A DNA stretch of 64,000 nucleotides from an uncultured Planctomycetia bacterium. Lineage in GTDB: Bacteria > Omnitrophota > Gorgyraeia > 2-01-FULL-45-10 > JAHFGN01. Shown piece by piece: positions 12,074 through 35,585 of the stretch (its first letter is position 1; each line of letters opens with the position of its first letter). The stretch spans positions 364 to 64,363 of the forward strand of contig CAYHAE010000001.1 in the NCBI GenBank assembly GCA_964354545.1, written 5' to 3'. The notes beneath the pieces were generated by a model. It saw only the letters and a list, made by a program, of their open reading frames with translations. It did no database searches and was not told where the DNA came from. A program made the position numbers and the translations under genes.

Positions 12074-12094
12074 TGACACCACAAGGAACGAATC

Positions 12095-16301: not shown

Positions 16302-16813
16302 ATAACGAGGCTCCTATCCGCCTCATGTAAAGCTGTATCGGATGTCGCATCGAAAAGGTAAATAACAAGGCTCCTATCCGCCTCATGTAAAGCTGTATCG
16401 GATGTCGCATTGCGGAGGTAACGCGCGAGGCTCCAGTCCCGACACCAGTGGAAAGCGAAGCGATCCCCGAAATCTTTCAGATTTCAGGGGAGACGTCGCA
16501 TCTCCCTCGACTTCGCTCGGGATGGTTCGTCCCTCGATATAACTCGGGATCGAATCCTGAGCCTGTCGAAGGATTCGAGGGATGGTGAGCAAAGTCGAAC
16601 CAGCAGAGGCAAAGAGCGAGGCTCCTATCCGCCTCCGGCAAAGCTCCATCGGATGTCGCATAGCAGAGGTAAATAACAAGGCTCCTATCCGCCTCATGTA
16701 AAGCTGTATCGGATGTCGCATTGCGGAGGTAACGCGCGAGGCTCCTATCCCGACCCCAGAGGAGTGGCGAAGCGGGATGTCGCATCGCAGAGGCAAAGAG
16801 CGAGGCTCCTATG
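16262..16813. repeat. Tandem array of about five or six degenerate 60-bp units. It runs from the last codons of mrdA to the rodA start codon and is interrupted by a 170-bp structured insert.
   Basis: The unit GTAAATAACGAGGCTCCTATCCGCCTCATGTAAAGCTGTATCGGATGTCGCATCG[CA/AA]GAG appears adjacent at 16300 and 16360, and again at 16610-16800. The copies are all variants of the ancestral mrdA-stop/rodA-RBS junction. Confidence 0.8.
16437..16612. repeat. Hairpin-rich insert (element A) that carries the 27-nt core CCCGAAATCTTTCAGATTTCAGGGGAG.
   Basis: It interrupts one 60-bp unit. Compare the intact unit at 16720-16790. The core at about 16466-16492 is identical to 29608-29634. Confidence 0.5.
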
Positions 16814-17908
16814 ATACGAAGGGAATTGTTGAGGGATTTCGACGCGACGTTATTGCTTGCGGCGCTCTTGATATTTATGACGGGCCTTGTCTTTCTGTCA
16901 AGCGCCACATCGACGAGGTACCAGGAGCTGAACCTCGCGTTTGTGTCACGGCAGGTCACATTTGCGATATGTGCGCTCGTCGTCATGCTCGTTGTCGTCA
17001 ACGTCAATTATCAGAGGTTCATAGATATCGCATGGGTCTTCTACCTCATCAACATCGCGGCGCTTGTTGTCTTGATGTTCGTCGGGCACTCGAGGCTCGG
17101 CGCGCAGAGGTGGTTCGAGGTCGGTTCATTCACGGTACAGCCGTCCGAGTTCATCAAGCTCACGCTCATTATCGTCCTTGCATCGTACATTAACGGAAAG
17201 AAAGGGCAGCTGGGCAGAGTGGAAAATCTGGTCATACCCTTTCTCCTCTTCCTCGTCCCGTTCGCATTGGTGGTCCTGCAGCCGGACCTCGGAACGGCAC
17301 TCCTCCTCGTCCCCATCCTCTTTGCGATGCTCTACGTCGGAGGCGCACGCGGGAAGCACCTCGCCTTCGCAGGAGGAATCGGGCTTCTCTGCATGCCCGT
17401 CTTCTGGCATTTTCTGAGGGACTACCAGAAACAGAGGCTCCTGGTCTTCATCAATCCAAATATAGATCCCCTCGGCGCGGGTTACACAATAATCCAGTCA
17501 AAGATCGCGGTGGGGTCGGGAGGGTTATTCGGAAAGGGGTGGCTTGCGGGGACGCAGAACCAGCTCAATTTCCTGCCCGAGAGGCACACGGACTTCATAT
17601 TCTCAGTCGTCGGCGAGGAGTGGGGTTTTTTCGGCAGCGCACTTCTCGTCCTTATGTACTACTTTCTCATACGGAGGATATTTCGCATTGCGTGCCTCAC
17701 GAGCGATTTGAGCGGGGCATTGATCGCATCAGGCATAGGTATCCTCCTCGCCCTTCAGGTAGCGATAAACATCGGCATGACGATCGGCCTCATGCCGGTG
17801 GTGGGGATACCGCTCGTGCTCGTGAGCTATGGCGGCTCAAGCCTACTCACGACGTTCGCGGCGATAGGGCTCGTCCTCAACGTGGGCATGAGGCGTTCGA
17901 CGTTTTGA
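16811..17908 (+). CDS. rodA: Rod shape-determining protein RodA (SEDS family).
   Basis: A 10-TM FtsW/RodA/SpoVE-family protein immediately after mrdA. Confidence 0.9.
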   Translation: MIRRELLRDFDATLLLAALLIFMTGLVFLSSATSTRYQELNLAFVSRQVTFAICALVVMLVVVNVNYQRFIDIAWVFYLINIAALVVLMFVGHSRLGAQRWFEVGSFTVQPSEFIKLTLIIVLASYINGKKGQLGRVENLVIPFLLFLVPFALVVLQPDLGTALLLVPILFAMLYVGGARGKHLAFAGGIGLLCMPVFWHFLRDYQKQRLLVFINPNIDPLGAGYTIIQSKIAVGSGGLFGKGWLAGTQNQLNFLPERHTDFIFSVVGEEWGFFGSALLVLMYYFLIRRIFRIACLTSDLSGALIASGIGILLALQVAINIGMTIGLMPVVGIPLVLVSYGGSSLLTTFAAIGLVLNVGMRRSTF

Positions 17909-18357: not shown

Positions 18358-20124
18358 ATGAACGAGAAAATCCTTGAACTGCTACGACATGTTCAAAAGC
18401 CGGGGAGATATATCGGCGAAGAGCATAATGCGGTAAGGAAAGACTGGGCCGGGCCCTATCTTCGCGTCCTCCTGGCTTTTCCCGACATATACGAGGTGGG
18501 GATGAGCTATCTCGGTATGAGGATCCTCTATGGGCTTTTGAATGAGAGGAGCGATGTCCTCTGCGAGAGGGTATTTTCACCGTGGCCCGATATGGAGAAG
18601 CAGTTGAGGGATAACGGGCTTTCGCTTTTCAGCCTCGAATCGAAGAGGCCGATCCGGGAATTTGGGATCATCGGATTCAGTCTCGCGTATGAACTGAATT
18701 ATACCAACGTCCTGAACATCTTGGACCTGGGGCGCATCCCCATGAGATCGCTGGATAGGAGCGATGAGGACCCCCTCGTGATAGCAGGGGGTCCCTCGTG
18801 TTATAATCCGGAGCCGATGGCGGATTTCATCGATGCATTTGTAATAGGAGACGGAGAGGAAGCGATCATCGATGTCGTGGAGGCGTGCAAAGATTTTTTT
18901 GATGACGGGCTGAAGAAGATACGCAACAGGGGAGCGCTCCTGAGGAAGCTCGCGACCTTGGAAGGGGTTTACGTACCGCGCCTCTACGACGTTGGCTACA
19001 ACGGTGACGGGACGGTCCGCGTGTTCACGCCCCTCGAAGGAGCGCCGCCGAAGGTCAGAAAGAGGGCCGTGAAGGATTTAGACGCCGCCTACTATCCTGT
19101 CTCGCAGGTCGTGCCCTACATACAGATCGTACACGACAGGATCATGCTGGAGATAATGCGCGGGTGCGCCCACCTGTGCAAGTTCTGCGAGGCAGGCGCG
19201 ACGTGCCTGCCCAGGCGGGAGCGGTCCACGGAGAAGATCGTTGAGCTTGCCATGAGCGCTTACCGCAACACGGGGTACGAAGAGGTATCTCTCATTTCGC
19301 TCTCGAGCGGCGATCATTCCAGGATACGGGAGATATGCAGGGCCCTCCATGATATCTTCAAGGACAAGGGGGTATCGATCTCCATGCCGTCTCTCAGGAT
19401 CGAGGTGATGACCGAAGAGCTTCCCCAGCTCATTCGCGAGGTGAGAAAGGCAGGCATTACCCTCGCGCCGGAATCCGGAAGCGAGCGGCTGCGAAACGCG
19501 ATCGGAAAGACGATCGCCATTGAGAAATTGTCCTCGACGGTCCTCGAGGCGTACAGATTGGGTTGGGACAGGATCAAGCTCTACTTCATGATAGGACTTC
19601 CGACGGAACGCGACGAGGACCTGCTCTCGACGGTTGACCTCATGGACGAACTGTCGGACGCGCGCAGGGCCCTCGGGAAGGGCCCCGGCCAGATCATCGC
19701 TTCCATCGCGCCCTTCGTGCCAAAGCCGCACACGCCCTTTCAATGGTGGGCGATGGAACCGCAGGCGTCGCTCGATGCGCGGCAGGCTTTTTTGAGAACG
19801 CACGTCCTCCACAGGAGCCGGAACCGGAAGAAGGTGAAGCTGGACTTTCACGATCTCGAGAAGAGCATCCTGGAAGGGGTTTTTTCCAGGGGTGACAGGA
19901 GACTCGGACGGGTGATCGAGAACGCGTACGAATGCGGTGCGCGGCTCGACAGTTGGGGAGAGTTCTTCGAGATCGGCCTGTGGCGCAGGGCGTTTGAGGC
20001 GTGCGGCCTGAACCCTGAATTCTACGTCAATAGGGCGCGGCCATACGAAGAGCTGCTGCCGTGGGATTTTATCGATGTGGGCATTCCAAAGGAAGTTCTT
20101 TTGAAGCGGGCTCAGGAGCAGTGA
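18358..20124 (+). CDS. Radical SAM protein of the TIGR03960 type, with an N-terminal B12-binding-like domain.
   Basis: Radical SAM core with the CAHLCKFCEAG cluster motif (CxxxCxxC). The length and N-terminus (PDIYEVGMSYLGMRILY) match the conserved family that normally partners DUF2344. Confidence 0.85.
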   Translation: MNEKILELLRHVQKPGRYIGEEHNAVRKDWAGPYLRVLLAFPDIYEVGMSYLGMRILYGLLNERSDVLCERVFSPWPDMEKQLRDNGLSLFSLESKRPIREFGIIGFSLAYELNYTNVLNILDLGRIPMRSLDRSDEDPLVIAGGPSCYNPEPMADFIDAFVIGDGEEAIIDVVEACKDFFDDGLKKIRNRGALLRKLATLEGVYVPRLYDVGYNGDGTVRVFTPLEGAPPKVRKRAVKDLDAAYYPVSQVVPYIQIVHDRIMLEIMRGCAHLCKFCEAGATCLPRRERSTEKIVELAMSAYRNTGYEEVSLISLSSGDHSRIREICRALHDIFKDKGVSISMPSLRIEVMTEELPQLIREVRKAGITLAPESGSERLRNAIGKTIAIEKLSSTVLEAYRLGWDRIKLYFMIGLPTERDEDLLSTVDLMDELSDARRALGKGPGQIIASIAPFVPKPHTPFQWWAMEPQASLDARQAFLRTHVLHRSRNRKKVKLDFHDLEKSILEGVFSRGDRRLGRVIENAYECGARLDSWGEFFEIGLWRRAFEACGLNPEFYVNRARPYEELLPWDFIDVGIPKEVLLKRAQEQ

Positions 20125-20193
20125 TCGCCTTATGTAATGATTTGCACCTAATAACGATATAAGATATATGCAATTTCGTTCGTTCAGCGTATT

Positions 20194-20494
20194 TTAGTGA
20201 ATGGTGAATAGTGAATAGGCCACCTTATCCGCCTTCGCAGAAGACCACGGATGTCAACCCGTGGATGAATGCGACCAGATGCTTCGGCGGTCGCCACCAA
20301 GGCTTCGGCGACCGTCCGCCGACGATTCAGTGGCGGACGGATGTCACACCTGACGTGCAGGCGGATACCCCCACCGCCTAGATTTACGAAGTAAATCTGG
20401 TGGGGGTAAAGAAAGGGACCACGGGCGTAAGCCCGTGGGGTTCCATTGGCCATATCGCAAAATTATTCACTAATAACCATTCACTATTCACTAA
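20194..20494. repeat. About 300-bp element with imperfect terminal inverted repeats (left TTAGTGAATGGTGAATAGTGAATAGGCCA, right TGGCCATATCGC...CCATTCACTATTCACTAA). The interior is a string of GC-rich hairpins.
   Basis: The ends are mutual reverse complements. Internal stems include CCACGG/CCGTGG, GTCGCC/GGCGAC, CGTCCGCC/GGCGGACG, CCCCCACC/GGTGGGGG and a GTAA tetraloop hairpin CACGGGC-GTAA-GCCCGTG. Confidence 0.5.
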
Positions 20495-20524
20495 TAATCA
20501 AGGATAGCCAAATTCCAAGCTTGT

Positions 20525-20554
20525 TTGACAAATGCATGTATCTTGAGGTATACT
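20525..20554 (+). promoter_or_regulatory. Sigma-70-type promoter of the GGDEF gene. Layout: TTGACA, 18-nt spacer, TATACT.
   Basis: It sits about 40 nt upstream of the RBS (GGGAGGAG) and the ATG at 20595. It shares the block TTGACAAATG...GGTATACTT with the pilin promoter at 28519. Confidence 0.45.
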
Positions 20555-20594
20555 TAATATGTTTACAGCGGATAACGAGTACGGGAGGAGATGG

Positions 20595-22010
20595 ATGAAG
20601 GCCATTTTTAAGAGACGCTCGACCACCCCCGACGGTTTTGGATATAAATTATTGCTCGCGTTCGGCCTTATGTCGGTGATACCCCTCCTGGTCGCCGTCT
20701 ACCTTGCTATCAACTACGTATTTCCCCAATTGAACACTCTTGTCGATATAAGCGTGGTGCTCAGTCTCTCCGCCCTCATTGCGTTTCTCGGATTTATCTT
20801 TGCACGGAAGGTCATCAAGCCGGTAGTCGATATGGCGGTCATGGCGCGGACGATCGCGAGCGGTCACTACGAAAAACAGATCCACATTTCCGGCAACGAC
20901 GAGATCGCGCAATTGGGTGAATCGATAAATGCGATCACGGCGAAGGTGCGGCTCAACATCGAGGAGATGAAGAGCTACAGCCACAAGGCGCAGGAGCTCA
21001 ACGTGGAGATACACAGGAGGATGGTGGTCCTCGCGGGCCTCCTCCAGGTGAGTGACGTGATATTGAGCAGCACCATGGAATTCAAGGATATCCTCGACCT
21101 GCTTGTCTCGAAGGTCTCCCAGGCGTACGATACGGGGTTCGCGGTATTATTTCTATCGAAGGACTCGCCCGAGCTCTTCTATCCTGTCGCACTCTGCAAT
21201 GCGGAGCACGAAGGGTTCGACAAGATCGTCATACGCGAGGGGAAGGGTTTTCTGGGGAAGCTGCTCTTCTCGAGGTCTATCTTAGTGATCGACTCCACTA
21301 TGCGGGAGACGAAGGAGATTGAGGAGTTCAAGAGGGCGCACCATGTGAAAAACCTCGTTGTATTTCCGATATTCTCCGGGAAGGATACGTTCGGGATACT
21401 CTTCGCCGGCAACCGGCTCGATAATTACAAGTTCTCCTCCGATGAATTCGATATCGTGAAGATCTTCGCGAAGCAGATCGCGATCGCCGTTGAGAATAAT
21501 ATCCTCGTGAGAAAGACGAAGGAGCTCGCCCTGAAAGACGACCTCACGAACCTCTTCAACAGGAATTACATATTCCCGAGGCTCGATGAGGAGATCAAGA
21601 GGGCGCTCTTCTTTCAAAGGCCGTGCTCATTCTTAATGATCAACGTGGACGAGTACAGGAAGTTCAGGGATGACTGTGGAGAGATAGCCTCCGAGGAAGC
21701 GCTCAAGAAGATCGCCGACATCCTGAAGGGCTATGTCGAACCGTTCGGGAAAGCGGCAAGGATCGCGGGTGACGAATTTGCGCTCCTCCTGCCGGAAAAG
21801 AATAAGCGGCAGTCGCTGGAGATCGCCGAAGCGATACGGAGGAAGATCGAATCGTCGAGCTTCGCCGAATCTCAAACCAAGCCCTTGACCGTGAGCATAG
21901 GCGTGAGCGAAAACCCGATAGACGGGTCGACGCAGGAAGATATCGCAAAGAGCGCTGCGGCGTTTCTTGCGCACGCAAAAGCGCAGGGCAAGAACAGGGT
22001 CGTTGGTTGA
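20595..22010 (+). CDS. Membrane sensor diguanylate cyclase with HAMP, GAF and GGDEF domains. The active-site motif is AGDEF.
   Basis: Two TM segments, a HAMP domain, a GAF domain and a GGDEF domain (RIAGDEFALLLPE). I chose the MKAIF start with its strong RBS. Confidence 0.85.
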   Translation: MKAIFKRRSTTPDGFGYKLLLAFGLMSVIPLLVAVYLAINYVFPQLNTLVDISVVLSLSALIAFLGFIFARKVIKPVVDMAVMARTIASGHYEKQIHISGNDEIAQLGESINAITAKVRLNIEEMKSYSHKAQELNVEIHRRMVVLAGLLQVSDVILSSTMEFKDILDLLVSKVSQAYDTGFAVLFLSKDSPELFYPVALCNAEHEGFDKIVIREGKGFLGKLLFSRSILVIDSTMRETKEIEEFKRAHHVKNLVVFPIFSGKDTFGILFAGNRLDNYKFSSDEFDIVKIFAKQIAIAVENNILVRKTKELALKDDLTNLFNRNYIFPRLDEEIKRALFFQRPCSFLMINVDEYRKFRDDCGEIASEEALKKIADILKGYVEPFGKAARIAGDEFALLLPEKNKRQSLEIAEAIRRKIESSSFAESQTKPLTVSIGVSENPIDGSTQEDIAKSAAAFLAHAKAQGKNRVVG

Positions 22011-22088
22011 GGAGACCCCCGTGCGCGACGTCGCGGGAGGATAGAGCGCGGACAGGAGCTGGTCGAGCACGTTTTTTATGGAGGATAG

Positions 22089-23153
22089 ATGGCCCACGAC
22101 ATTCAGCGTCTTTTACTGCTCATGAATGAGAGAAATGCGTCTGACCTGCACATCTCCGCGAACGCGACCGTGCAGCTGAGGCTCGACGAGAAGCTCGTTC
22201 CCGTTGATGACCATGTCCTCACTCCGGAAGAGGCGAAAACCCTCACGTACAGCATACTGAATAAGGAGCAGATCGCGAAGTTCGAGAAAGACCTGGAGCT
22301 TGACCTCTCCTTGAGCGTGACGGACTTGAGCAGGTTCAGGGTAAACGTCTTTAAACAGCGGGGAGACGTAGGGTGCGCGATCAGGCTCATACCGTTCAGG
22401 ATAAGGAACTTCGAGGAATGCGGCCTGCCCGTGGACGTCGTGACGAGCCTGTGCAAGAAACCGAAGGGGCTGGTCCTGGTCACCGGCGCGACAGGAAGCG
22501 GTAAATCGACGACGCTCTCCGCGATGATAGATTGGATAAATTCAGAGCGGTACTGTCACATCATCACCATCGAGGACCCGATAGAGTTCGTCCATACCCA
22601 CAAGAAGGCGCTCATTGAGCAGCGTGAGGTCTATAGCGATACGCACTCATTCGGGGAGTCCCTCAAGCACGTCCTGAGGCAGGATCCTGACGTCATCCTC
22701 ATCGGTGAGATGCGCGATCTGGAGACGATAGAGTCGGCCCTCATCATCGCAGAGACCGGCCACCTCGTATTTGCGACACTCCACACATCTGATTGCGTCC
22801 AGACGATGAATAGGATCATAGACGTCTTCCCGGCGTACCAGCAGCAGCAGATCCGGACGCAGCTCTCCTTCGTCCTCGTAGGGATCCTGTCCCAACAGCT
22901 CATCCCGCGGCTCAAAGGGACGGGCAGGGTCCTCGCGACCGAGGTCTTGGTGGTGACACCTGCGGTGCGCAGCCTCGTCCGCGAGGCAAAGATACACCAG
23001 CTCTACTCCGTCATCCAGACGTCGCAGAAAGACGGCATGAAGACAATGAACCAGGCGCTCTTCGAGCTCTATCAGAAGAAGCTCATATCGTACGAAGATG
23101 CGTTCGCGCGCTCGACCGATACCGAAGATCTGAACAGGGTCTTCAATCGGTGA
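22089..23153 (+). CDS. pilT: Type IV pilus retraction ATPase PilT.
   Basis: Walker A GATGSGKSTT, an Asp box and a His box. The 354-aa length is PilT-like and lacks the long N-terminal domain of PilB. Confidence 0.9.
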   Translation: MAHDIQRLLLLMNERNASDLHISANATVQLRLDEKLVPVDDHVLTPEEAKTLTYSILNKEQIAKFEKDLELDLSLSVTDLSRFRVNVFKQRGDVGCAIRLIPFRIRNFEECGLPVDVVTSLCKKPKGLVLVTGATGSGKSTTLSAMIDWINSERYCHIITIEDPIEFVHTHKKALIEQREVYSDTHSFGESLKHVLRQDPDVILIGEMRDLETIESALIIAETGHLVFATLHTSDCVQTMNRIIDVFPAYQQQQIRTQLSFVLVGILSQQLIPRLKGTGRVLATEVLVVTPAVRSLVREAKIHQLYSVIQTSQKDGMKTMNQALFELYQKKLISYEDAFARSTDTEDLNRVFNR

Positions 23154-23181
23154 TCGTCTCGACCGCGGTCACGGGTACCCT

Positions 23182-23640
23182 ATGGCAGCGATTCGAAGGA
23201 TTGTTTCAAAACAATTAGGCGAGCTCCTCCTCGAGAGGAGGCTGATCGATCAATCCCAGCTCGAGTCGGCCCTCAAGCTGCAGAAAGAGAAGGGTGGGCT
23301 CATCGGTCAGATACTCGTCATGCTCGGGTACGTGAAAGAGGAGGATATTGCCCAGGCCATCACCGTCCAGTATGGTTTTCCCTTTCTCTCCCTGGAGAAT
23401 TACGAGATCAACCAGGAAGCACTACAGCTTATACCCGCGAGCGTGGCCCTCCAATACAACATCATACCCGTGGACAAGATAGGGAATATGCTTACGGTCG
23501 CGATGTCGAATCCGCTCAACCTGCAGGCGGTCGAGGACGTGGAGATGATCACCAAATGCCAGGTGCAGGTGTTCGTGAGCACCCTGACCGCCGTCACCGA
23601 AGCAATAAAGAAATATTATGGAGTTATCCCTAAGAGATAG
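23182..23640 (+). CDS. Standalone GspE-N (T2SSE_N / MshEN-like) domain protein.
   Basis: Only 152 aa. The N-terminus QLGELLLERRLIDQSQLESALKLQ matches the MshEN-type LGxxLLxx(x)LIxxxxLxxALxxQ helix pair. The rest matches the GspE-N fold (IPVDKIGNMLTVAMSNPLN). There is no ATPase domain. Confidence 0.7.
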   Translation: MAAIRRIVSKQLGELLLERRLIDQSQLESALKLQKEKGGLIGQILVMLGYVKEEDIAQAITVQYGFPFLSLENYEINQEALQLIPASVALQYNIIPVDKIGNMLTVAMSNPLNLQAVEDVEMITKCQVQVFVSTLTAVTEAIKKYYGVIPKR

Positions 23641-25354
23641 GCTTACCAAGATACTGATAGACGCGAAGCTCATCACCTACGAAGACCTCCTCAAGGCCAT
23701 CACGGTTCAAAAAGATCGCGGGGGAACGCTGGGCGAAACGCTTGTCAATCTCGGGCACATCTCTAAAGACCAGCTCATGCTCGCCATAAGCCAGGGCCTC
23801 GGGATACCCCCGATAAACCTCTCCCGCTATAAGGTAGATCCGAATATCCTAAGGCTGATACCGCCGAAGATCGCCAAGCACTACCAGATCATACCGCTCT
23901 CCAAGATAGGGAACACCCTCACGGTCGTCATGTCTGACCCGCTCAATATATTCGCGATCGACGGCATAAAGGCATTCACGGGCCTGAAGATATCCCCCCT
24001 CATCACTACCGAGCAGGACATAAAGGACGCCATCGCGCAATACTATGAGGAGGATGCGTCTTTGGTCATGGATAAGATCGTCGACGACCTGGGAGGGGGC
24101 GGCGAGATCACGGTGGTCGAAGAGAAGGGCGCTGCCGAAGGAGAGACGTCCACGGAATTGCTCAAGATGACGCAGGATGCGCCCGTAGTGAAATTTACAA
24201 ACGCCATACTCGCGGAAGGCGTTGACGTAAAGGCGAGCGACATCCTTGTGGAGCCTCTCGAGGACCAGATGAGGGTACGGTACAGGGTCGACGGCATTCT
24301 GCATGAAGGAAAGCACGCCCCAAAGGTGATGCACAAAGGCATTGTGTCGAGGCTCAAGGTAATGTCTGAGCTCAACATCGCCGAGCGCAGGCTGCCGCAA
24401 GACGGGCGGTTCAAGATACGCCTCCACAATCGGGAGATCGATTTCAGGATCTCCGTGCTCCCTTCGAAAGAAGGGGAGAAGGTGGCGCTCCGGATACTGG
24501 ATAAAGCGCAGGCGAAGCTCAACATAGAGGACCTCGGTTTTGATGAACATTCGGTCACGGAGATGAAGAAGGCCGCCGCCAAACCCCACGGCATGATACT
24601 CGTCGCCGGCCCGACAGGGTGCGGAAAGACGACGACCCTCTACTCTATCTTAAAGCATGTCGATTCACCCACGCTCAACCTCGTGACAGTGGAGGACCCT
24701 GTCGAGTACCTGTTGGATGGCATCAACCAGGTCACCGCGCGGCCCGACCTCGGTCTGACGTTCGCATCTGCGCTGAGGTCTATCTTGCGGCAGGACCCCG
24801 ACGTCGTGATGATAGGCGAGATAAGGGATTTTGAGACGGTCGATATCGCGATCAAGTCTGCGCTCACAGGGCATCTCGTGTTGAGCACGCTCCATACGAC
24901 GACCGCGCCCGGTTCGGTGATCCGCCTTGTGGATATGGGGGTCGAACCCTTTCTCCTCACGTCCTCCCTCATCCTGGTCGTGGCGCAGCGGTTGGTGAGG
25001 AAAATCTGTATGGTGTGCAAAGAACCGGTGAAATTAGACGACGCGATCGCGGAAAAGCTCAGGCTTGACGCGAATGAGGTGAAGGGCACGTTGTACCGGG
25101 GGAGGGGCTGCGACACGTGTTTAAAGACGGGCTATAAAGGCCGCGTGGGCATTGTGGAGGTGCTGTCCCTTACGCCAAAGGTAAAAGAGCTCATCCTCAA
25201 GGGTGTCCAGGAGTATGAGATACGGGATGAGGCGAGGAAAGAAGGGATGCTGAGCCTGCGCGAGAACGGGATAAAGAAGGTGTTAGAAGGGGCCACGACG
25301 CTTGACGAGGTCTTCCGTGTCACCGTGGGGAACCAGGATCTGGAGCTGAAATAA
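23618..25354 (+). CDS. pilB: Type IV pilus assembly ATPase PilB (GspE family), paralog 1.
   Basis: Tandem GspE-N domains at the N-terminus, Walker A GPTGCGKTTT and the tetracysteine motif CMVCK...CDTC. Confidence 0.9.
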   Translation: MELSLRDRLTKILIDAKLITYEDLLKAITVQKDRGGTLGETLVNLGHISKDQLMLAISQGLGIPPINLSRYKVDPNILRLIPPKIAKHYQIIPLSKIGNTLTVVMSDPLNIFAIDGIKAFTGLKISPLITTEQDIKDAIAQYYEEDASLVMDKIVDDLGGGGEITVVEEKGAAEGETSTELLKMTQDAPVVKFTNAILAEGVDVKASDILVEPLEDQMRVRYRVDGILHEGKHAPKVMHKGIVSRLKVMSELNIAERRLPQDGRFKIRLHNREIDFRISVLPSKEGEKVALRILDKAQAKLNIEDLGFDEHSVTEMKKAAAKPHGMILVAGPTGCGKTTTLYSILKHVDSPTLNLVTVEDPVEYLLDGINQVTARPDLGLTFASALRSILRQDPDVVMIGEIRDFETVDIAIKSALTGHLVLSTLHTTTAPGSVIRLVDMGVEPFLLTSSLILVVAQRLVRKICMVCKEPVKLDDAIAEKLRLDANEVKGTLYRGRGCDTCLKTGYKGRVGIVEVLSLTPKVKELILKGVQEYEIRDEARKEGMLSLRENGIKKVLEGATTLDEVFRVTVGNQDLELK

Positions 25355-27063
25355 TGGAGGCCCTCAAGGATAGGATCCTCAGGGTGCTCATCGATACGCA
25401 ACGCGTGAAGCCGAGCGAGCTCAAGAGGGTCCTCGAAAAGCAGAAGGACAGCCGGACGAGCATGAGCAAGGTCCTGGTCCAGGAGGGTCTCATCTCAGAG
25501 AAGGACCTCATGCTGATCTTGAGCCAGGAACTGAACATCCCTCCCATAAGCCTTTCGAAATATAAGATCGACCAGGCCACCGTACGCCTCATTCCGGAAA
25601 AGATCGCCCGTCAGTTCTTTCTCATTCCGCTTTCGAAGATCGGAAAGGTGCTCACCGTTGCAATGTCCGACCCGCTCAACATCATCGCCATCGACGAGGT
25701 GAAGCTGCTCACGAACTATAAGATAGACCTCGTCATCGCAACAGAGAACGACATCAAAGAGGCGCTCGATGCCTACTATGGTACCGCGACCCTCGAGACA
25801 CAGGAGGCGCTGGATACGCGCGCTGTCGGCGAGGAGCTCGAGATCGTTGAGGGAGAGGAGTTCGATGTCGACAGCATCTCCCAAGAGAGCCAGAAGGCTC
25901 CCATCGTGAAGATGGTGGACGTGATCTTGAACGATGCGCTGAGGAGGCGTTCGAGCGACATACACATTGAGTCGTGCGAGAAGATGCTGCGGATACGGTA
26001 CAGGATCGACGGAGACCTTCAGGAGGTCTTTAAACTCCCGAAGAAGAACCAGAATGCCATCATCGCACGATTTAAGATCATGTCCAAGCTCGACATCACG
26101 GAGACGCGTCTCCCGCAGGACGGGAGGTTCAGGATAAACTTCGAAGGGAAGGAGATAGACTTCAGGGTCTCGGTGCTTCCCATTGCGTTCGGGCCGAAGA
26201 TCGTCTTGAGGGCGCTCGATAAATCGAACTTGAGCGTGGGGCTCGACAAGCTCGGCTTCCTTCCGTATTCCCTCAATGTCTTCAAGGAGGCGCTCAAGCG
26301 TCCGTACGGCATGATACTCGTCACAGGGCCGACGGGGAGCGGGAAGTCGACCACCCTGTATTCCATCATCAATCAACTCAACACGCCCGAGAGGAATATC
26401 GTGACGCTCGAGGAGCCTGTGGAGTACGAGTTGCAGGGCATCACGCAGGTCGAGGTGAGGTCGGATATCGGCCTCACCTTTGCGAACGGGCTCCGGTCCA
26501 TCTTGCGGCAGAGCCCCGATGTGATCATGGTCGGAGAGATCAGGGATTTCGAGACGGCGGATATCGCGATAAAGGCCTCGCTCACAGGGCAGCTCATCCT
26601 GAGCACGCTCCACACGAACGACTCGGTCGGAGCTATTACGAGGCTCGTCGATATGAAGGTGGAACCATTTCTGTTATCATCGAGCCTCATCATGGCATGC
26701 GCCCAGAGGCTCCTCAGGAGGACCTGCCCCCATTGCAGGGCCGAGGTGGACGTGCCCAAAGGTGTCTTGGAGGAATTCGGCATCGATCCGCTTGACGAGC
26801 ACAAGAAGAAGAGGGTCTTCTATGAGGGGAAAGGGTGCGAGAAGTGCAACAGCTCCGGTTACTATGGAAGGTCCGGGATACTTGAGGCGTTCCTCATCGA
26901 TGACACGATGCGCGATATGATCATCAGGAGGGCATCGAGCGACGAACTGAAGGCGCATGCCATGAAAAAAGGGATGAGGACGCTGAGGCAAGAAGCGCTG
27001 GAAAATTTCGTCAACGGTGTCACGACCCTGGAAGAGGTCTTGAGGGTGACCGCGGAGGGGTAA
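25354..27063 (+). CDS. Second GspE-family assembly ATPase (PilB paralog 2).
   Basis: Same architecture as paralog 1: Walker A GPTGSGKSTT and CPHCR...CEKC. Its start overlaps the paralog-1 stop in a TAATG arrangement. Confidence 0.85.
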   Translation: MEALKDRILRVLIDTQRVKPSELKRVLEKQKDSRTSMSKVLVQEGLISEKDLMLILSQELNIPPISLSKYKIDQATVRLIPEKIARQFFLIPLSKIGKVLTVAMSDPLNIIAIDEVKLLTNYKIDLVIATENDIKEALDAYYGTATLETQEALDTRAVGEELEIVEGEEFDVDSISQESQKAPIVKMVDVILNDALRRRSSDIHIESCEKMLRIRYRIDGDLQEVFKLPKKNQNAIIARFKIMSKLDITETRLPQDGRFRINFEGKEIDFRVSVLPIAFGPKIVLRALDKSNLSVGLDKLGFLPYSLNVFKEALKRPYGMILVTGPTGSGKSTTLYSIINQLNTPERNIVTLEEPVEYELQGITQVEVRSDIGLTFANGLRSILRQSPDVIMVGEIRDFETADIAIKASLTGQLILSTLHTNDSVGAITRLVDMKVEPFLLSSSLIMACAQRLLRRTCPHCRAEVDVPKGVLEEFGIDPLDEHKKKRVFYEGKGCEKCNSSGYYGRSGILEAFLIDDTMRDMIIRRASSDELKAHAMKKGMRTLRQEALENFVNGVTTLEEVLRVTAEG

Positions 27064-27119
27064 AGGAGCAAGAGGGGACCGTGAGTCCCTTGAGCGCGAC
27101 ACGGAGCGGAGGACGTGCC

Positions 27120-28334
27120 ATGCCACACTTTCGATATACCGCAAAAGACAGCAAGGGGAATTCGCTCAAAGGCGTGTTAGAGGCCGCCACGAGGCAGGAA
27201 GCGGTGGCCGCCCTCCATAAGCAGGGCGTGTTGATCATATCGCTCGGCGAGGTGAAGGCAAAGCAGGCGGGGCGTTCGGCCGGCCACTTTGCAAAGAAGG
27301 TGAAGATGGACGAGCTTGTCATCTTCTCCCGGCAGCTCGCGACGATGGTCGATGCGGGGATACCTCTCGTAGGCGCTCTCGACATCCTTGGGCAGCAGAT
27401 AGAGACAAAGTCGTTCAAAAACGTGGTGCAGGGGATCCGCGAACGGGTGGAGGCAGGGGAGAGCCTTTCTGACGCCATGTCAAAACACAGGACGATCTTC
27501 TCAGAGCTTTTCGTCAATATGGTGAAGGCGGGGGAGGCGAGCGGCATGCTCGATGAGATACTCGAAAAGGTCGCAGAATATCTTGAAAAGACGAGTGCGC
27601 TGCAGAGGAAAGTTCAGTCCGCACTCATCTATCCGGCGGTAGTGACCTCGATGGCGATCGGCATTACGCTCGTCCTTCTGATCAAGGTGATCCCGGTCTT
27701 CAAAGATATATACTCAGGCTTTGGGGCAGCGCTTCCCAGGCCGACGCAAATCCTCATCTTCGTGAGCGATGCCCTCGGAAAGTATTTCCTCGTGACTACG
27801 ATTGTCCTCGTGCTCGTCTTCATTGCCCTCGGTCGATATCTCCGTACGGAGCGCGGCAGATTTATGTTCGATAGTTTCCTTCTCAGCGTTCCCGTATTCG
27901 GGGTCCTGTTCAAAAAGGTAGCAGTGAGCAAATTCACAAGGACGCTTTCTACGCTCGTGAAGAGCGGCGTCCCCATACTCACCTCACTTGAGATAGTGAG
28001 CAGGACATCGGGCAATAAGGCGGTAGAAGCGGCATTAGAAGTGGTCCGCAAGAATGTGCGCGAAGGCGAGAGGATCGCGGACCCTCTTGCGAAATCGAAG
28101 ATATTTCCTCCGATGGTGGTGAGGATGGTTGCTGTGGGTGAACAGGCCGGACAACTTGAGAAGATGCTCACCAAGATAGCAGATTTTTATGAAACCCAGG
28201 TGGACGCTGCGGTAAGCGGCCTCACGAGCCTTATCGAACCCCTCATTATTCTATTTCTTGGCATCGTCATAGGAACCATTGTCATCTGTATGTTCCTGCC
28301 CATATTCAGGCTCACCTCTGTATTGGGTGGGTAA
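27120..28334 (+). CDS. pilC: Type IV pilus platform protein PilC (GspF family).
   Basis: Two T2SSF repeats separated by TM segments. I chose the MPHFRY start. The track ORF begins 13 codons upstream. Confidence 0.9.
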   Translation: MPHFRYTAKDSKGNSLKGVLEAATRQEAVAALHKQGVLIISLGEVKAKQAGRSAGHFAKKVKMDELVIFSRQLATMVDAGIPLVGALDILGQQIETKSFKNVVQGIRERVEAGESLSDAMSKHRTIFSELFVNMVKAGEASGMLDEILEKVAEYLEKTSALQRKVQSALIYPAVVTSMAIGITLVLLIKVIPVFKDIYSGFGAALPRPTQILIFVSDALGKYFLVTTIVLVLVFIALGRYLRTERGRFMFDSFLLSVPVFGVLFKKVAVSKFTRTLSTLVKSGVPILTSLEIVSRTSGNKAVEAALEVVRKNVREGERIADPLAKSKIFPPMVVRMVAVGEQAGQLEKMLTKIADFYETQVDAAVSGLTSLIEPLIILFLGIVIGTIVICMFLPIFRLTSVLGG

Positions 28335-28518
28335 TGGCAGGATCGTTTGTAAAAAATGAAAAAGCCGGTTAATGCTTTCGTAAACTGCCCGCGCGATGGA
28401 AAGGCCTCCGGGTCCGCTGCGAAAATGCGACTTGTTTCCGACGAGAGATCTGAGGCAATATTTTAACTTATTCGGCGGCTATAAAGCGCCTTTTATGCAT
28501 GTATTCTGCGTGCAGACC

Positions 28519-28546
28519 TTGACAAATGTGCGGCATAAGGTATACT
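28519..28546 (+). promoter_or_regulatory. Sigma-70-type promoter for pilin 1. Layout: TTGACA, 16-nt spacer, TATACT.
   Basis: It lies about 100 nt upstream of pilin copy 1 and shares the TTGACAAATG...GGTATACTT block with the GGDEF promoter. Confidence 0.5.
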
Positions 28547-28648
28547 TTATAATGGAACCCAGTATCTGTTAAAGAGAGGGGGTGGAAAGGGGATAATTTA
28601 AAGACTTTTTTTATCGGACCCATTTTTGGGAAAAAGGAGGGATGAGAC

Positions 28649-28984
28649 ATGGTCAGAAGACATAAAAAGGGATTCACGCTTGTTGAAATCATGATAGTCG
28701 TCGCAATTATAGGTCTATTGGCTGCCATCGCTATCCCGAACTTTGTGAGGGCGAGAGAGACGGCAGAAAGAAATGCGTGTATCGCAAACCTGAAGCAGAT
28801 ACAGGGTGCAGTTCAGGTGTGGGCGATCGACACGAGTGCGGGGTCCACTTCAACGCCAACCGCGACATCAGATCTCGCGAACTACATAAAGACATGGCCG
28901 AAGTGCAAAACAACTACGTATGCGATACCCGCAGTCAGTGCAAACCCCGCGTGTCCAACCACCGGCACTGGACACAACCTCTAA
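28649..28984 (+). CDS. Type IV pilin (prepilin N-terminal cleavage/methylation domain), copy 1.
   Basis: Class III signal MVRRHKKG|FTLVEIMIVVAIIGLLAAIAIP with a Cys pair in the C-terminal region. An RBS (AGGAGG) precedes it. Confidence 0.85.
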   Translation: MVRRHKKGFTLVEIMIVVAIIGLLAAIAIPNFVRARETAERNACIANLKQIQGAVQVWAIDTSAGSTSTPTATSDLANYIKTWPKCKTTTYAIPAVSANPACPTTGTGHNL

Positions 28985-29019
28985 TCTTAAGGGGTAATCC
29001 ATTTTTCGTGCGAGGTGCG

Positions 29020-29057
29020 AAAAGGACGGCTATCGTATTATTGCCGTCCTTTTTGCT
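29020..29057 (+). terminator. Rho-independent terminator after pilin copy 1.
   Basis: AAGGACGGC-loop-GCCGTCCTT followed by TTTTT. Confidence 0.6.
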
Positions 29058-29180
29058 TTGGGTATTTCGAAAATTATTTAATTATTATCAGAGCACAACA
29101 GCTGTAAATGAAAGGGGGTGAGGACCGGCCTAAAGACTTTTTTTATCGGACCCATTTTTGGGAAAAAGGAGGGATGAGAC

Positions 29181-29516
29181 ATGGTCAGAAGACATAAAAA
29201 GGGATTCACGCTTGTTGAAATCATGATAGTCGTCGCAATTATAGGTCTATTGGCTGCCATCGCTATCCCGAACTTTGTGAGGGCGAGAGAGACGGCAGAA
29301 AGAAATGCGTGTATCGCAAACCTGAAGCAGATACAGGGTGCAGTTCAGGTGTGGGCGATCGACACGAGTGCGGGGTCCACTTCAACGCCAACCGCGACAT
29401 CAGATCTCGCGAACTACATAAAGTCATGGCCGAAGTGCAAAACAACGACGTATGCGATACCCGCAGTCAGTGCAAACCCCACGTGTCCAACCACCGGCAC
29501 TGGACACAACCTTTAA
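29181..29516 (+). CDS. Type IV pilin, copy 2.
   Basis: The protein differs from copy 1 at 2 of 111 residues (T to S and A to T). The upstream leader and RBS are also duplicated. Confidence 0.85.
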   Translation: MVRRHKKGFTLVEIMIVVAIIGLLAAIAIPNFVRARETAERNACIANLKQIQGAVQVWAIDTSAGSTSTPTATSDLANYIKSWPKCKTTTYAIPAVSANPTCPTTGTGHNL

Positions 29517-29518
29517 TC

Positions 29519-29715
29519 CTGTTATCAGAGTTCCACGAGCTACGCCCGTGGGTTGCACCCGCGGACGTAGACCGCGGGTGCATGGCGGAGCGGTCCGGGA
29601 TTTAATTCCCGAAATCTTTCAGATTTCAGGGGAGCGGTTGCCGCACAAGGAGAGTATTCAGTGCGGGTACCGCGGGCTGCGTGCCAACGGCAGGCGTACC
29701 CGTGGGGCTCCAGGC
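29519..29715. mobile_element. Structured insert of about 197 bp (element B) in the 3' UTR of pilin copy 2. It carries the same 27-nt core as element A.
   Basis: Copy 1 reads TAATC|TTAAGGGG. Copy 2 reads TAATC[197 bp]TTAAGGGG. The insert is hairpin-dense (TGCACCCGCGG/CCGCGGGTGCA, CCACG/CGTGG, GCCGCAC/GTGCGG) and has the core at 29608-29634. Confidence 0.5.
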
Positions 29716-29749
29716 TTAAGGGGTAATCCATTTTTCGTGCGAGGTGCGG

Positions 29750-29790
29750 AAAGGACGGCTATCATATTATTGCCGCCCTTTTCTTTTTAG
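29750..29790 (+). terminator. Terminator after pilin copy 2 (slightly degraded duplicate of the copy-1 terminator).
   Basis: AAAGGACGGC-loop-GCCGCCCTTTTCTTTTT. Confidence 0.5.
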
Positions 29791-29905
29791 GACAGCGCGA
29801 TAAACGTTTTTCATAATGCAATCGTGATATCGGGGCCACGTATCTGTTGAAGAGTAAGGCGCTTTTTGACTTCACCCGATCCTAGGAGGGAAGGGGGGAT
29901 GAGAC

Positions 29906-30241
29906 ATGGTCAGAAGACATAAAAAGGGATTCACGCTTGTTGAAGTCATGATAGTCGTTGCAATCATAGGTCTATTGGCTGCCATCGCCATCCCCAACTT
30001 TGTAAGGGCGAGAGAGACGGCAGAAAAGAGCGCGTGTATATCAAACCTGAAGCAGATACAGGGTGCGGTCGAAATGTGGGTACTCGATACGAGCGCGGCA
30101 TCTTCGTCAACGGCGTCTGGAACATCAGACCTTGTGAATTACATAAAGGTATGGCCAAAGTGTAAGGCGAGCACATATGCGATACCTGCGGCAGACGGAA
30201 CGCCCGTGTGTCCGAACAGCATAGGCGGACACAACCTCTAA
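29906..30241 (+). CDS. Type IV pilin, divergent third paralog.
   Basis: Same N-terminal domain as copies 1 and 2. The variable C-terminal half is divergent but the Cys pair is conserved. Confidence 0.85.
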   Translation: MVRRHKKGFTLVEVMIVVAIIGLLAAIAIPNFVRARETAEKSACISNLKQIQGAVEMWVLDTSAASSSTASGTSDLVNYIKVWPKCKASTYAIPAADGTPVCPNSIGGHNL

Positions 30242-30275
30242 ACCTACAGCGGGGATCCTTTTCACTTTGGGTACC

Positions 30276-30313
30276 TTGACAATCTCCGATATTTATGATA
30301 GATTTGATATAAT
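30276..30313 (+). promoter_or_regulatory. Promoter candidates downstream of pilin 3. Layout: TTGACA, 17-nt spacer, TAGATT, then an extended -10 TGATATAAT.
   Basis: Consensus-like hexamers at 30276-30281 and 30299-30313 in an AT-rich patch. Confidence 0.45.
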
Positions 30314-30424
30314 ATTATAATATTAGGTATGTACCCTTTATGAGATGGTTTGACTAATTGGAGGAAGATGCGGTTTAGAAGGCAAGGTATCATTTTGACC
30401 GGATGCCTGTTTATAACGGTATGT

Positions 30425-30463
30425 AAAGCACCCTTCTCATTTGTGCGCGGGGTGCTTTTTTCA
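30425..30463 (+). terminator. Intrinsic terminator between that promoter and pilM.
   Basis: AAGCACCC-loop-GGGTGCTT followed by TTTTTC. Confidence 0.55.
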
Positions 30464-30555
30464 TGTCTCGTCCGGCGCGTATGTATGAGCCCTGCGCCTC
30501 ATTTCGATACTTTTAACCCAGAAGACCTGCCTTACGCTCTACCGAGAGGGATAAT

Positions 30556-31563
30556 ATGCCGAAAGCAAGGGTAGAGAAAAAACTGGGTATCGATATCGGA
30601 AGCTACGCCATAAAGTTGGTCGAACTTCACTTGTCCAAGGATGAGAACAGGGTCGCCAGCATTGGAATTAAAAGGATCGAGAACAGCTCCCCGGAAGCCC
30701 TAGCAGGAAAGGTGAGGGAGCTCTGCGAGGAATCAAAAGTGAAGACGAGGGACGTGAGCCTGTCTGTCTCCGGCCCGCAGGTTATCACGCGGCTCATTAC
30801 AATGCCGACAATGTCCGACTCGGAAATGAAGAATGCGCTCGTGTTCGAAGTCGAGAAGACCATCCCCTTTAGTCCCGAAGAGGTTATCTACGATTACCAG
30901 GTGCTCGAGCGAGGGAAAGAGAAGAAGATGGACGTCCTGCTCACGGCGGTCAAGAGAGATTACGTGCAAAAGTACATCCAGATCGCCCAGTCGAGCGACC
31001 TGAGCCTTCGCGTCGTGGACGTGGACTCCCTTGCGCTCGCAAATGCGTTCGTGAAAAACTCCGAAGGCTCCCTCGACCAGAATAAGACGGTCGCGCTTCT
31101 CAATATCGGCGACAGATATACGAACCTCGACATATTGCGCGGAGGGGTCTTGAGCTTCTCCAGGGATATACAGATAGGAGGGCGCGATGTCAATGAGTCC
31201 ATTGCGCGGATACTGAACGTCGACAGCAAGGGCGCGGAAAAGCTGAAGTTCGACCCCAAGGAGCGCGCGGACGAAATAGGCCTTCCCATTAGAATGGTGT
31301 TGGCCAATCTGGCTGACGAGCTGAGGCTGTCATTTGGGTATTTCGAGAATAGATTCGGGAGGAACGTCGATGACCTGTATCTCTCCGGAGGGTCATGCGG
31401 CCTGCTCGGCGTGACCGAATACCTCGAGGAGAACCTTGGGCTCAAGGCGAAGGTGTGGGACCCCCTCAAGGCGTTTAGCATAGATCAGGAAAACGTAGGA
31501 AAAGCACTCTCGAACGAGATGAGGCGCAGCCTCGCGGTGAGCGTGGGGCTTGCCCTGAGATAA
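30556..31563 (+). CDS. pilM: Type IV pilus assembly protein PilM (actin-like).
   Basis: The N-terminus LGIDIGSYAIKLVEL has the actin/HSP70 fold. It is followed by pilN, pilO, pilP and pilQ. Confidence 0.85.
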   Translation: MPKARVEKKLGIDIGSYAIKLVELHLSKDENRVASIGIKRIENSSPEALAGKVRELCEESKVKTRDVSLSVSGPQVITRLITMPTMSDSEMKNALVFEVEKTIPFSPEEVIYDYQVLERGKEKKMDVLLTAVKRDYVQKYIQIAQSSDLSLRVVDVDSLALANAFVKNSEGSLDQNKTVALLNIGDRYTNLDILRGGVLSFSRDIQIGGRDVNESIARILNVDSKGAEKLKFDPKERADEIGLPIRMVLANLADELRLSFGYFENRFGRNVDDLYLSGGSCGLLGVTEYLEENLGLKAKVWDPLKAFSIDQENVGKALSNEMRRSLAVSVGLALR

Positions 31564-31566
31564 CGT

Positions 31567-32289
31567 ATGAACCTAGAGATCAACCTTCTACCGAAAGAGT
31601 TAAGGCCGCGCAAGAAGATACAGCTCCCGCCGATTGCGTTAAAGATCTTCGGCATCTCCAACGTCCGGCCGATCGTCTTGGTGGCGTGGCTCATCGCGAT
31701 CCTTTTTACGCTGCAGATGCTGTTCTCTGCGCTTCAGGTGGTCCAGAGGTCACGCCTCGGCGCCTTGCAGAACAGGTTCTCGAAGCTCAGCCGCGAGAAG
31801 GGCGAGGTGGACGCGATAAAAAAGCAGATCGCGAGCATCACCCAAAAGGTCGCCTCTGTCGGCGAAGGGATACAAAGGCCCTTCAGCCTCGCCGAGAAGC
31901 TCAACGCGATAAGCGATGCCGTCGTGTCGGGGATGTGGCTGACGCAGCTCGCATACGACGAGAAGACTGCCGAGGTGGAGGTTGCGCCGAGCACAGCGGG
32001 CGGGGCAGGCATGAAAAGAGCGCCCGGCGCCAAGGCGGCGCCCGCTAAGCCAACCATAAAACGAGTGACCACGCGGACACTCTCTCTTTCAGGCTATGTC
32101 TACAGCGCGGGCGAGGACTCGACCGCATACCTCAATAGATTTATCGACAACCTGAAAAAGAACGAGGGCTTTTATTTTGATTTCAACAATATAGCGGTGG
32201 TGGAGAACAGGGTCGAGTTTCTCCAATTGGAGAAAGGGGAAGGGCAGGAAGTCACCGCGTTCAGTATCGTCTGCCAGTTCAGGCAATAA
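31567..32289 (+). CDS. pilN: PilN-like bitopic pilus assembly protein.
   Basis: N-terminal INLLPKE motif, a single TM segment and a coiled coil. At 240 aa it is longer than usual. Confidence 0.75.
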   Translation: MNLEINLLPKELRPRKKIQLPPIALKIFGISNVRPIVLVAWLIAILFTLQMLFSALQVVQRSRLGALQNRFSKLSREKGEVDAIKKQIASITQKVASVGEGIQRPFSLAEKLNAISDAVVSGMWLTQLAYDEKTAEVEVAPSTAGGAGMKRAPGAKAAPAKPTIKRVTTRTLSLSGYVYSAGEDSTAYLNRFIDNLKKNEGFYFDFNNIAVVENRVEFLQLEKGEGQEVTAFSIVCQFRQ

Positions 32290-32334
32290 CAGGGCAGGCG
32301 CTGTCCGTCATACGAAAGGCGCAGTCCCGCCCTT

Positions 32335-33370: not shown

Positions 33371-33383
33371 GAGGTGGAATGCG

Positions 33384-35434: not shown

Positions 35435-35585
35435 AAGAGGCTGCTGAATTACACTGTGCTGATGTTGATGCGCAGATGCTCTTAAGATATGTGATCATCT
35501 GTGAAGGCACTCGCATGCACGGGATCAGCGCAGAACTGTGCACCGCAATGTGAGCATAATTTCATAAACCATCCGAAAGAGGCCC

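Follow-up and report, generated by a model that had tools for sequence, protein, structure and literature searches.

Our analysis of a 64,000-nucleotide (nt) stretch of DNA from an uncultured Planctomycetia bacterium, placed by GTDB in the phylum Omnitrophota (assembly GCA_964354545.1, contig CAYHAE010000001.1, positions 364 to 64,363; hereafter the window), concerns the motor module of a conserved Omnitrophota type IVa pilus cluster. The module encodes two adjacent PilB-type extension ATPases and, just before them, a small stand-alone MshEN protein, here called N152, which is a candidate sensor of cyclic di-guanosine monophosphate (c-di-GMP). Open reading frames (ORFs) of the window were assigned with Pfam and NCBIfam profiles, and all the large ones between 16.8 and 47.9 kb lie on the plus strand. 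The first gene of the region encodes a membrane protein of 483 residues with HAMP, GAF and GGDEF domains and two transmembrane segments (20559-22010). The initial annotation of this DNA had rightly placed a membrane GGDEF protein upstream of the motor genes, as confirmed by Pfam and by a scan for transmembrane segments, but had started it at 20595, which is the second in-frame Met of an ORF that runs from 20559. The next gene encodes the retraction ATPase PilT (354 residues, 22089-23153), which scores 469.4 bits with TIGR01420 (cut-off 319) over positions 2-342 of 343 and has the Walker A, Asp box, Walker B and His box (TGH...TLH) motifs. Then come N152 (23182-23640), whose 152 residues contain PF05157 as the sole Pfam domain, and the two extension ATPases, PilB1 (578 residues, 23618-25354) and PilB2 (569 residues, 25354-27063), each with a T2SSE domain at 445 bits and one MshEN stretch. 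The TAA stop codon of PilB1 and the ATG of PilB2 overlap by one base in a TAATG arrangement (AAATAATGGAG / AAATAATGG). The module closes with the platform protein PilC (27081-28334), present as a single copy in the cluster, which has two T2SSF stretches (215 bits) and scores 407-421 bits with PilC/GspF models. Translation probably begins in fact at the ATG at 27120 (MPHFRY...); its orthologs have 397-421 residues and the alignment begins at about residue 14. All these genes, which lie on the plus strand, had been recognised in the initial annotation, together with the TAATG overlap. The GspE-N repeats that it had seen in each PilB were not recovered: Pfam finds one MshEN stretch per PilB, and the region has three such domains instead of four. 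Downstream lie three type IV pilins of 111 residues with the N_methyl motif (28649-28984, 29181-29516 and 29906-30241), followed by PilM, PilN, PilO, a PilP-like protein and the secretin PilQ (30556-35129; Pfam PilM_2, PilN, PilO, T2SSB-like and Secretin), which are the remainder of the same pilus machine.

We then scanned for similar loci using one genome per GTDB species, calling ORFs in these loci and assigning them by BLAST against the window proteins. The scan returned 60 loci, of which 57 came from Omnitrophota-type metagenome-assembled genomes. The order RodA, radical S-adenosylmethionine (SAM) gene, GGDEF gene, (PilT), N152, PilB1, PilB2, PilC, pilins and PilM was found in about 55 of the 60, a repetition suggesting that the arrangement is more than chance. 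N152-PilB1-PilB2 forms the invariant core of this cassette: the two PilB genes are neighbours in every case, with PilB1 before PilB2, irrespective of how many pilin copies there are. The genes are tightly packed, with median intergenic gaps of at most 18 nt within the cassette and of 55 nt between the radical SAM gene and the GGDEF gene, and the latter is found immediately before the motor genes in 41 of the 47 loci with the upstream side covered. Three variants could be distinguished among the 30 loci covered on both sides. Variant A, to which the window belongs, has the radical SAM gene, the GGDEF gene, PilT, N152, PilB1, PilB2 and PilC (14 loci). Variant B lacks PilT and has an extra gene between PilB2 and PilC, or in one locus after PilC (13 loci). 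Variant C lacks the GGDEF gene and has PilT (3 loci).

No exact match to the N152 sequence was found, and its placement in Omnitrophota comes from a homology search. Homologs of N152 number 1690 at E<=1e-5. The best 120 of them are nearly all about 149 residues long, most are 67-78% identical to N152, and every named one is from Omnitrophota or Omnitrophica. Type IVa pili have been reported as near-universal in Omnitrophota and proposed to act in host attachment (PMC10066038). PilB, c-di-GMP and MshE go unmentioned both in that study and in a 2026 complete-genome preprint on the phylum, the architectures tabulated in Supplementary Table 4 of Wang 2016 do not include a plain MshEN domain standing alone, and we found no description in the literature of a separate MshEN sensor combined with a twin-PilB cassette. 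The cassette would represent a phylum-wide form of c-di-GMP control over type IV pili, whose elements are known singly and whose combination appears to be new.

N152 as a candidate c-di-GMP receptor

The MshEN motif consists of two copies of RLGxx(L/V/I)(L/V/I)xxG(L/V/I)(L/V/I)xxxxLxxxLxxQ separated by a five-residue spacer (PMC5013675), and work on PilF has widened its first position to Arg, Lys or Leu, that is (R/K/L)LGxx... (PMC11731258). The bipartite motif of N152 covers 53 residues (residues 11-63, 23212-23370 on the plus strand) and reads QLGELLLERRLIDQSQLESALKLQ-KEKGG-LIGQILVMLGYVKEEDIAQAITVQ. It aligns to positions 1-53 of the 53-position c-di-GMP motif model NF053729 with 60.1 bits (cut-off 38 bits), and all 46 N152 orthologs tested pass this model. 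The residues taken as key are Gly3 and Gln24 of each motif, with hydrophobic residues at positions 2, 6, 7, 11, 12, 17 and 21. Among 57 orthologs, G13, Q34 and Q63 are kept in all and G42 in 56. In MshEN of Vibrio cholerae, the G11L mutant showed no detectable binding and G40I a 72-fold loss, whereas Q32A and Q61A caused 9-fold and 12-fold losses (Wang 2016 Supplementary Table 1). A simple count over 22 key positions gives 20 for the window copy and a family median of 21, which is inside the range of proven binders; the reference scores are 21 for PilF GSPII-B, 20 for Myxococcus xanthus PilB, 19 for PilF GSPII-C and 18 for the non-binder GSPII-A. In motif II, the first residue is Leu in 56 of the 57 orthologs. 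This matches the widened consensus and is shared with PilF GSPII-B, which has Lys and Leu, not Arg, at the two first positions.

The structural model of N152 agrees with this assignment. The AlphaFold2 prediction (predicted local distance difference test score, pLDDT, 87.8) has helices at residues 12-18, 24-37, 41-47 and 53-64, then a beta-alpha subdomain, which corresponds to the MshEN fold with its N-terminal four-helix bundle and C-terminal alpha/beta N1 subdomain. Its top Foldseek match is V. cholerae MshE bound to c-di-GMP (5HTL; TM 0.76/0.82, root-mean-square deviation 2.4 A), and the next matches are PilF GSPII-A and GSPII-B. PilF is also the best match among solved sequences, with E 3e-49 over three domains. 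On the basis of motif and fold, we infer that N152 is the predicted c-di-GMP receptor of the cassette. In our preferred reading, N152 is a detached c-di-GMP-sensing module of a twin-PilB extension motor in which the N-domains of the PilBs are structural, and we give this about an even chance of being right.

The relation between N152 and PilB1 is illustrated by a metagenomic contig (L064; JGI 3300009514, Ga0129284_10000161, guanine-plus-cytosine content 62%; region 8001-13263), which encodes a protein of 765 residues, P0135, taken from a library of 50%-identity representatives. The first 150 residues of P0135 are 46% identical to N152, a Gly/Lys-rich linker of 45 residues follows, and the remaining part aligns with the whole of PilB1 at 50% identity. 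After the fusion gene come a PilB2-type gene (49% identical, with a TGQ His box) and PilC. This fusion indicates that N152 and PilB1 belong together functionally, as a single unit in which N152 corresponds to the distal MshEN domain of a PilB with two MshEN domains. The genes upstream of the fusion encode a glycosyltransferase, a deacetylase and large glycoside hydrolases.

N152-like MshEN domains also occur elsewhere in other settings (P0161, P0169, P0121-P0124): fused to a DnaA-type ATPase domain or to PilZ plus DUF7305, in tandem arrays of two or three MshEN domains that lack an ATPase, and in a set of four that precedes a PilB core ending in a double zinc ribbon. We rejected the idea that N152 is the frameshifted 5' end of PilB1, as it has its own ORF and stop codon in 57 of 57 orthologs, with gaps to PilB1 ranging from -23 to +342 nt.

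The initial annotation had proposed that the PilB paralogs are themselves c-di-GMP receptors through their own MshEN domains, in which case N152 would be one of three receptors. We find this unlikely, although several observations fit it. All three N-domains are PF05157 MshEN domains, motif II is well kept in the PilB2 orthologs of variant A (SLGKILV..G..L..Q), and NF053729, at about its cut-off, accepts the N-domains of 44 of 45 PilB1 and 33 of 44 PilB2 orthologs as it does those of N152; the window PilB1 scores 44.7 bits. Since most PilB1 and PilB2 N-domains also pass, we rejected this model as a family-level discriminator, and the argument rests on individual residues for which mutational data exist. 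The Gly at the third position of motif I, where the G11L change abolishes binding in MshEN, is missing in all 45 PilB1 orthologs (mostly replaced by Thr) and in all 44 PilB2 orthologs, and that of motif II in 42 of 45 and 30 of 44, respectively. The Gln at position 24 of motif II is missing in 45 of 45 PilB1 orthologs. The key-position medians are 17 of 22 for PilB1 and 16 of 22 for PilB2, both below the non-binder PilF GSPII-A (18). Comparing the same 41 genomes, mean identity is 68% in the motif region of N152, 64-67% in the ATPase cores and 66% in PilT, whereas it drops to 50% in the corresponding helices of PilB1 and to 40% in those of PilB2, which are the least conserved parts of these proteins. 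PilB2 has the most degenerate motif of the three, and its window copy, at 27.4 bits, falls below the cut-off of NF053729. The loss of binding in PilB1 is nevertheless a residue-level prediction, not a certainty. What persists of the earlier proposal is the ligand: it had made the c-di-GMP reading depend on at least one MshEN domain conserving the motif, and this reading survives because N152, the orphan of the three, does so.

Two PilB paralogs beside a single PilC

When 45 PilB1 orthologs, 44 PilB2 orthologs and, as outgroup, five other PilBs were placed in a neighbour-joining tree (30 bootstraps), each of the two sets came out as monophyletic, in 26 of 30 and 29 of 30 bootstraps, respectively. 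Identity is about 60% within a clade, 46% between the two clades and about 42% to the outgroups. Together with the reciprocal monophyly, these levels indicate that the duplication predates the sampled radiation. Both window proteins match the PilB model TIGR02538 over its full length, with 636.1 bits (PilB1) and 647.4 bits (PilB2), just under the trusted cut-off of 675.65, and score lower with the GspE model TIGR02533 (591 and 594 bits). By these scores they appear PilB-like, not certified equivalogs. With the TfpB model NF053534 (cut-off 850) they reach only 440.6 and 442.3 bits. The NCBIfam scores and the reciprocal monophyly led us to reject a Tad-like, type II secretion system-like or TfpB-like paralog, the first two of which the initial annotation had considered for one of the pair.

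Both clades keep the Walker A motif, the Asp-box Glu, Walker B, the DGR/FR arginine fingers, the second His of the His box and the tetra-Cys zinc motif. In the window these read GPTGCGKT, EDPVEY, GEIRD, TGHLVLSTLHT and CxxC...CxxC in PilB1, and GPTGSGKS, EEPVEY, GEIRD and TGQLILSTLHT, followed by the tetra-Cys motif, in PilB2. Two differences distinguish the clades. The His box has TGQ throughout the PilB2 clade (26605-26613), where GspE, M. xanthus PilB and PilB1 have TGH, and PilB1 has HTTTA (24875-24889, TGH...TLHTTTA) in place of the usual HTNDA found in PilB2 (TGQ...TLHTNDA). These reciprocal signatures could mark complementary subunit interfaces. In PilB of Geobacter metallireducens, the first His (H413) packs against T411 and the second (H420) contacts the gamma-phosphate (PMC5424180). 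A dead PilB2 ATPase, the outcome that would have spoken against a specialisation of the paralogs, was rejected: the catalytic motifs are complete, with Walker B intact, and only the first His of the His box is Gln. Judged by their motifs, both proteins seem catalytically intact, and PilB2 looks unusual, not degenerate.

The two ATPases could still be separate motors, serving different filaments or, as the initial annotation had suggested, different pilins, or with one of them of a priming or retraction type. Such a division has a precedent in Acinetobacter baylyi, where PilB and TfpB have distinct roles on one machine (PMC11656802). It would also fit the presence of several pilin and minor-pilin genes after the motor genes, the lack of PilT in the variant B cassette, and the clade-specific TGQ and HTTTA signatures. 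We nevertheless consider it rather improbable. Each cluster has one PilC and one PilMNOPQ set, the pair stays adjacent and in the same order whether there are one or three major-pilin copies, neither PilB is TfpB-like (about 441 bits against a cut-off of 850), and two of the pilins of the window are a very recent duplicate. A specialisation for different pilins is thus not supported.

c-di-GMP turnover genes and neighbouring features

The GGDEF protein of the window has two hydrophobic segments with about five residues between them in the transmembrane scan, and is thus without a periplasmic sensor. Its GGDEF domain (PF00990, 105.9 bits) has the signature AGDEF and no RxxD I-site, and it keeps the residues aligned with N335, D327 and R366 of PleD. 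The AGDEF signature is active in V. cholerae VCA0965 (PMC3974145), and the orthologs of the window's sub-clade have either GGDEF or AGDEF signatures.

The extra gene of variant B encodes a REC-HD-GYP protein of 356 residues with the motif HHEHYDGTGYP (for example, L027:14192-15262 and L043:14002-15072). It is part of the cassette in 19 loci: in 12 fully covered ones it lies between PilB2 and PilC, and in the remaining 7 it comes right behind PilB2 or at another place in the cassette. No cassette has both PilT and this gene. The upstream GGDEF gene and the embedded REC-HD-GYP gene indicate that c-di-GMP turnover genes were kept in the cassette, or recruited into it, more than once. On these grounds, a wiring of c-di-GMP to the pilus motor, as first proposed for the window, remains plausible. 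The phosphodiesterase to which that proposal had pointed does not take part in the local clustering. The GAF-HD-GYP gene is present (42877-44058; PF13487, HD_5, 121 bits, plus GAF), but it starts 14.5 kb past the end of PilC instead of 8 kb. PilMNOPQ lies in between, and after 35129 come nine housekeeping genes, including those for DUF2344, RNase G, L21, L27, Obg, ProB, ProA and NadD, a context on which we rejected its local wiring. Its HD is at residue 261, and its GYP motif reads HHVRYGGGGYP (residues 313-323, 43813-43845), with Val in place of Glu relative to HHExxDGxGYP; its catalytic competence is uncertain and it is best called a candidate phosphodiesterase. ArgS and Mfd follow after 44058. 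No Rfam family matched the window at the gathering score, nor 20000-31000 at E<=1, and a c-di-GMP riboswitch near the pilins or motor genes was accordingly not found.

The pilus cluster, taken from the GGDEF gene to the secretin (20559-35129), is flanked on one side by the radical SAM gene (18358-20124, with a Radical_SAM_N2 head) and on the other by DUF2344 and RNase G (35132-37094). Cluster and flanking radical SAM and DUF2344 genes all lie downstream of mreB-...-rodA, the last being the RodA/FtsW gene at 16811-17908. Usually the Radical_SAM_N2 and DUF2344 parts are found next to each other or as one fused protein, which makes the pilus cluster look inserted into that pair. The junction between the radical SAM gene and the cassette is kept across Omnitrophota loci.

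Two of the three pilin genes of the window are, by their sequence, a recent duplicate: copies 1 and 2 are 100% identical over 300 nt, including 50 nt upstream, and their proteins differ in two residues close to the C-terminal end. Over the 300-nt repeat, the identity of copy 3 is 80% (region 28599-30241). An 84-nt repeat, containing what by eye looks like a terminator-like hairpin, follows copy 1 and recurs about 190 nt past copy 2. The ORF at 29452-29790, which shares sequence with the end of copy 2, is probably not a real gene.

A proposed detached sensor for a twin-PilB motor

Our preferred reading implies a mechanism in which N152 would bind c-di-GMP and act in trans, as a detached N-terminal regulatory module, on PilB1 and PilB2, most directly on PilB1. 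It would thereby couple the level of c-di-GMP to pilus extension on the single PilC/PilMNOPQ platform. In the window and in variant A, the adjacent AGDEF protein, a putative cyclase, would be the probable local source of c-di-GMP, under its cytoplasmic GAF sensor. The N-domains of the PilBs would no longer bind the ligand and would have a structural role as N1 domains, and both PilBs would drive extension on the same machine, whether together in a mixed hexamer or as homohexamers that alternate. PilT would retract the pilus. A more specific form of this reading is that the pilus of Omnitrophota, which are ultra-small and putatively host-dependent, has an obligate two-paralog PilB motor whose sole c-di-GMP sensor is an MshEN protein that binds PilB1 in trans and was born by fission of an (MshEN)2-PilB. 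We put this forward only tentatively, and think it more likely wrong than right.

Several observations weigh against the proposed role of N152. Position 1 of its motif I is Gln in 51 of the 57 orthologs, outside the published R/K/L set, and a near-invariant Lys precedes this Gln; the window copy also has Arg, not Gly, at position 10 of motif I. The family has an invariant Ser-Asn-Pro (S109-N110, 23506-23511) where PilB1, PilB2 and PilF GSPII-B have Ser-Asp-Pro, and the Asp of GSPII-B (D266) hydrogen-bonds the guanine amino group (PMC11731258). The acceptance by NF053729 of the N-domains of all three families has the same bearing, and PilB1 may still bind c-di-GMP, because its window copy and nearly all of its orthologs pass this model. 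The fusion of N152 to PilB1 speaks for a functional linkage, not for any particular mechanism. Finally, the GGDEF signatures are degenerate in the sub-clade without PilT (GDDEF, GDNEF, ANNEF, REDVY, EERIF and others, in L020-L045), which implies that the conserved role of the GGDEF protein is not simply synthesis. For these degenerate neighbours, a receptor or scaffold role seems to be suggested over cyclase activity.

The least probable alternative, in our view very unlikely, is that N152 is a ligand-independent adaptor or decoy N1 domain, which helps to dock or sequester the PilBs at PilM/PilC and in which the conserved residues have no function beyond the four-helix fold. In its favour, loss of binding is common among MshEN domains (XpsE and PilF GSPII-A are examples), the Gln in motif I is outside the characterised set, and the MshEN_C/N1 part is a known protein interface (GspE N1-GspL, PDB 4PHT and 2BH1, weak fold matches). 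Against it, the invariant residues of N152 are the ligand contacts (Gly3 and Gln24 of each motif, and the Leu triads), the helices of PilB1 and PilB2 hold the same fold despite having lost such residues, and c-di-GMP turnover genes are repeatedly embedded beside N152.

A detached sensing module can be compared with several known systems. c-di-GMP promotes or controls pilus extension via the extension ATPase in V. cholerae MshE, M. xanthus PilB and Clostridium perfringens PilB2 (PMC5013675, PMC11656802). These three have the same MshEN fold and bipartite 53-residue motif as N152, but carry the motif in the ATPase itself and have one ATPase, whereas in Omnitrophota the motif is on a separate chain of 152 residues and there are two ATPases. 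In Thermus thermophilus PilF, GSPII-B binds c-di-GMP at 6 nM and GSPII-C at 460 nM, and GSPII-A, whose motif II is degenerate, is a non-binder (PMC11731258). PilF thus resembles the Omnitrophota motor in having several MshEN domains per motor, some of them non-binding. It differs in that its three MshEN domains are in one chain with the ATPase, while in Omnitrophota the distal domain is a separate gene (fused in the contig described above) and a second PilB paralog is present. Control by a receptor in trans is known from FimX-PilZ-PilB of Xanthomonas citri and FimX-PilB of Pseudomonas aeruginosa, where the receptor acts on a PilB N-domain that binds no ligand itself (PMC8389850, PMC5595344). 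The FimX systems are in this respect like the role proposed for N152. Their receptor is however a degenerate EAL protein, with a PilZ adaptor in Xanthomonas, whereas the Omnitrophota candidate is an MshEN domain, paralogous to its target domain. As in A. baylyi, with PilB and TfpB (PMC11656802), there are two extension-type ATPases for one pilus machine; unlike there, both Omnitrophota paralogs are PilB-type, adjacent, in fixed order and phylum-wide. A parallel in architecture is P. aeruginosa PA3740, a small protein of the MshEN type that, like N152, has no ATPase domain. It consists of MshEN_N and an N1 subdomain that is highly divergent, whereas N152 is a canonical full MshEN. PA3740 is not known to be encoded in a pilus motor operon. 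It has the LxxxLxxQ motif and is listed as an experimentally characterised c-di-GMP binder involved in swarming (Wang 2016, Supplementary Tables 3-4).

These comparisons bear on the question of how MshEN/N1 domains control PilB-type ATPases. The ATPase rate of C. perfringens PilB2 was unchanged by c-di-GMP in vitro, and mutants have been inconsistent between species (PMC11656802). A split sensor would permit the separate titration of sensor and motor, and the fused counterpart in another lineage offers a comparison with the split N152-PilB1. The phylum-wide pair of intact PilBs on one platform also provides a clean case for the question of heteromeric extension motors. If the more specific form of our reading is true, N152 would be a natural split regulatory domain, and would show that MshEN/N1 is able to control a secretion ATPase from a subunit of its own. 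For the Omnitrophota, the cassette points to c-di-GMP as a gating signal for the pili that have been proposed to attach these bacteria to their hosts (PMC10066038).

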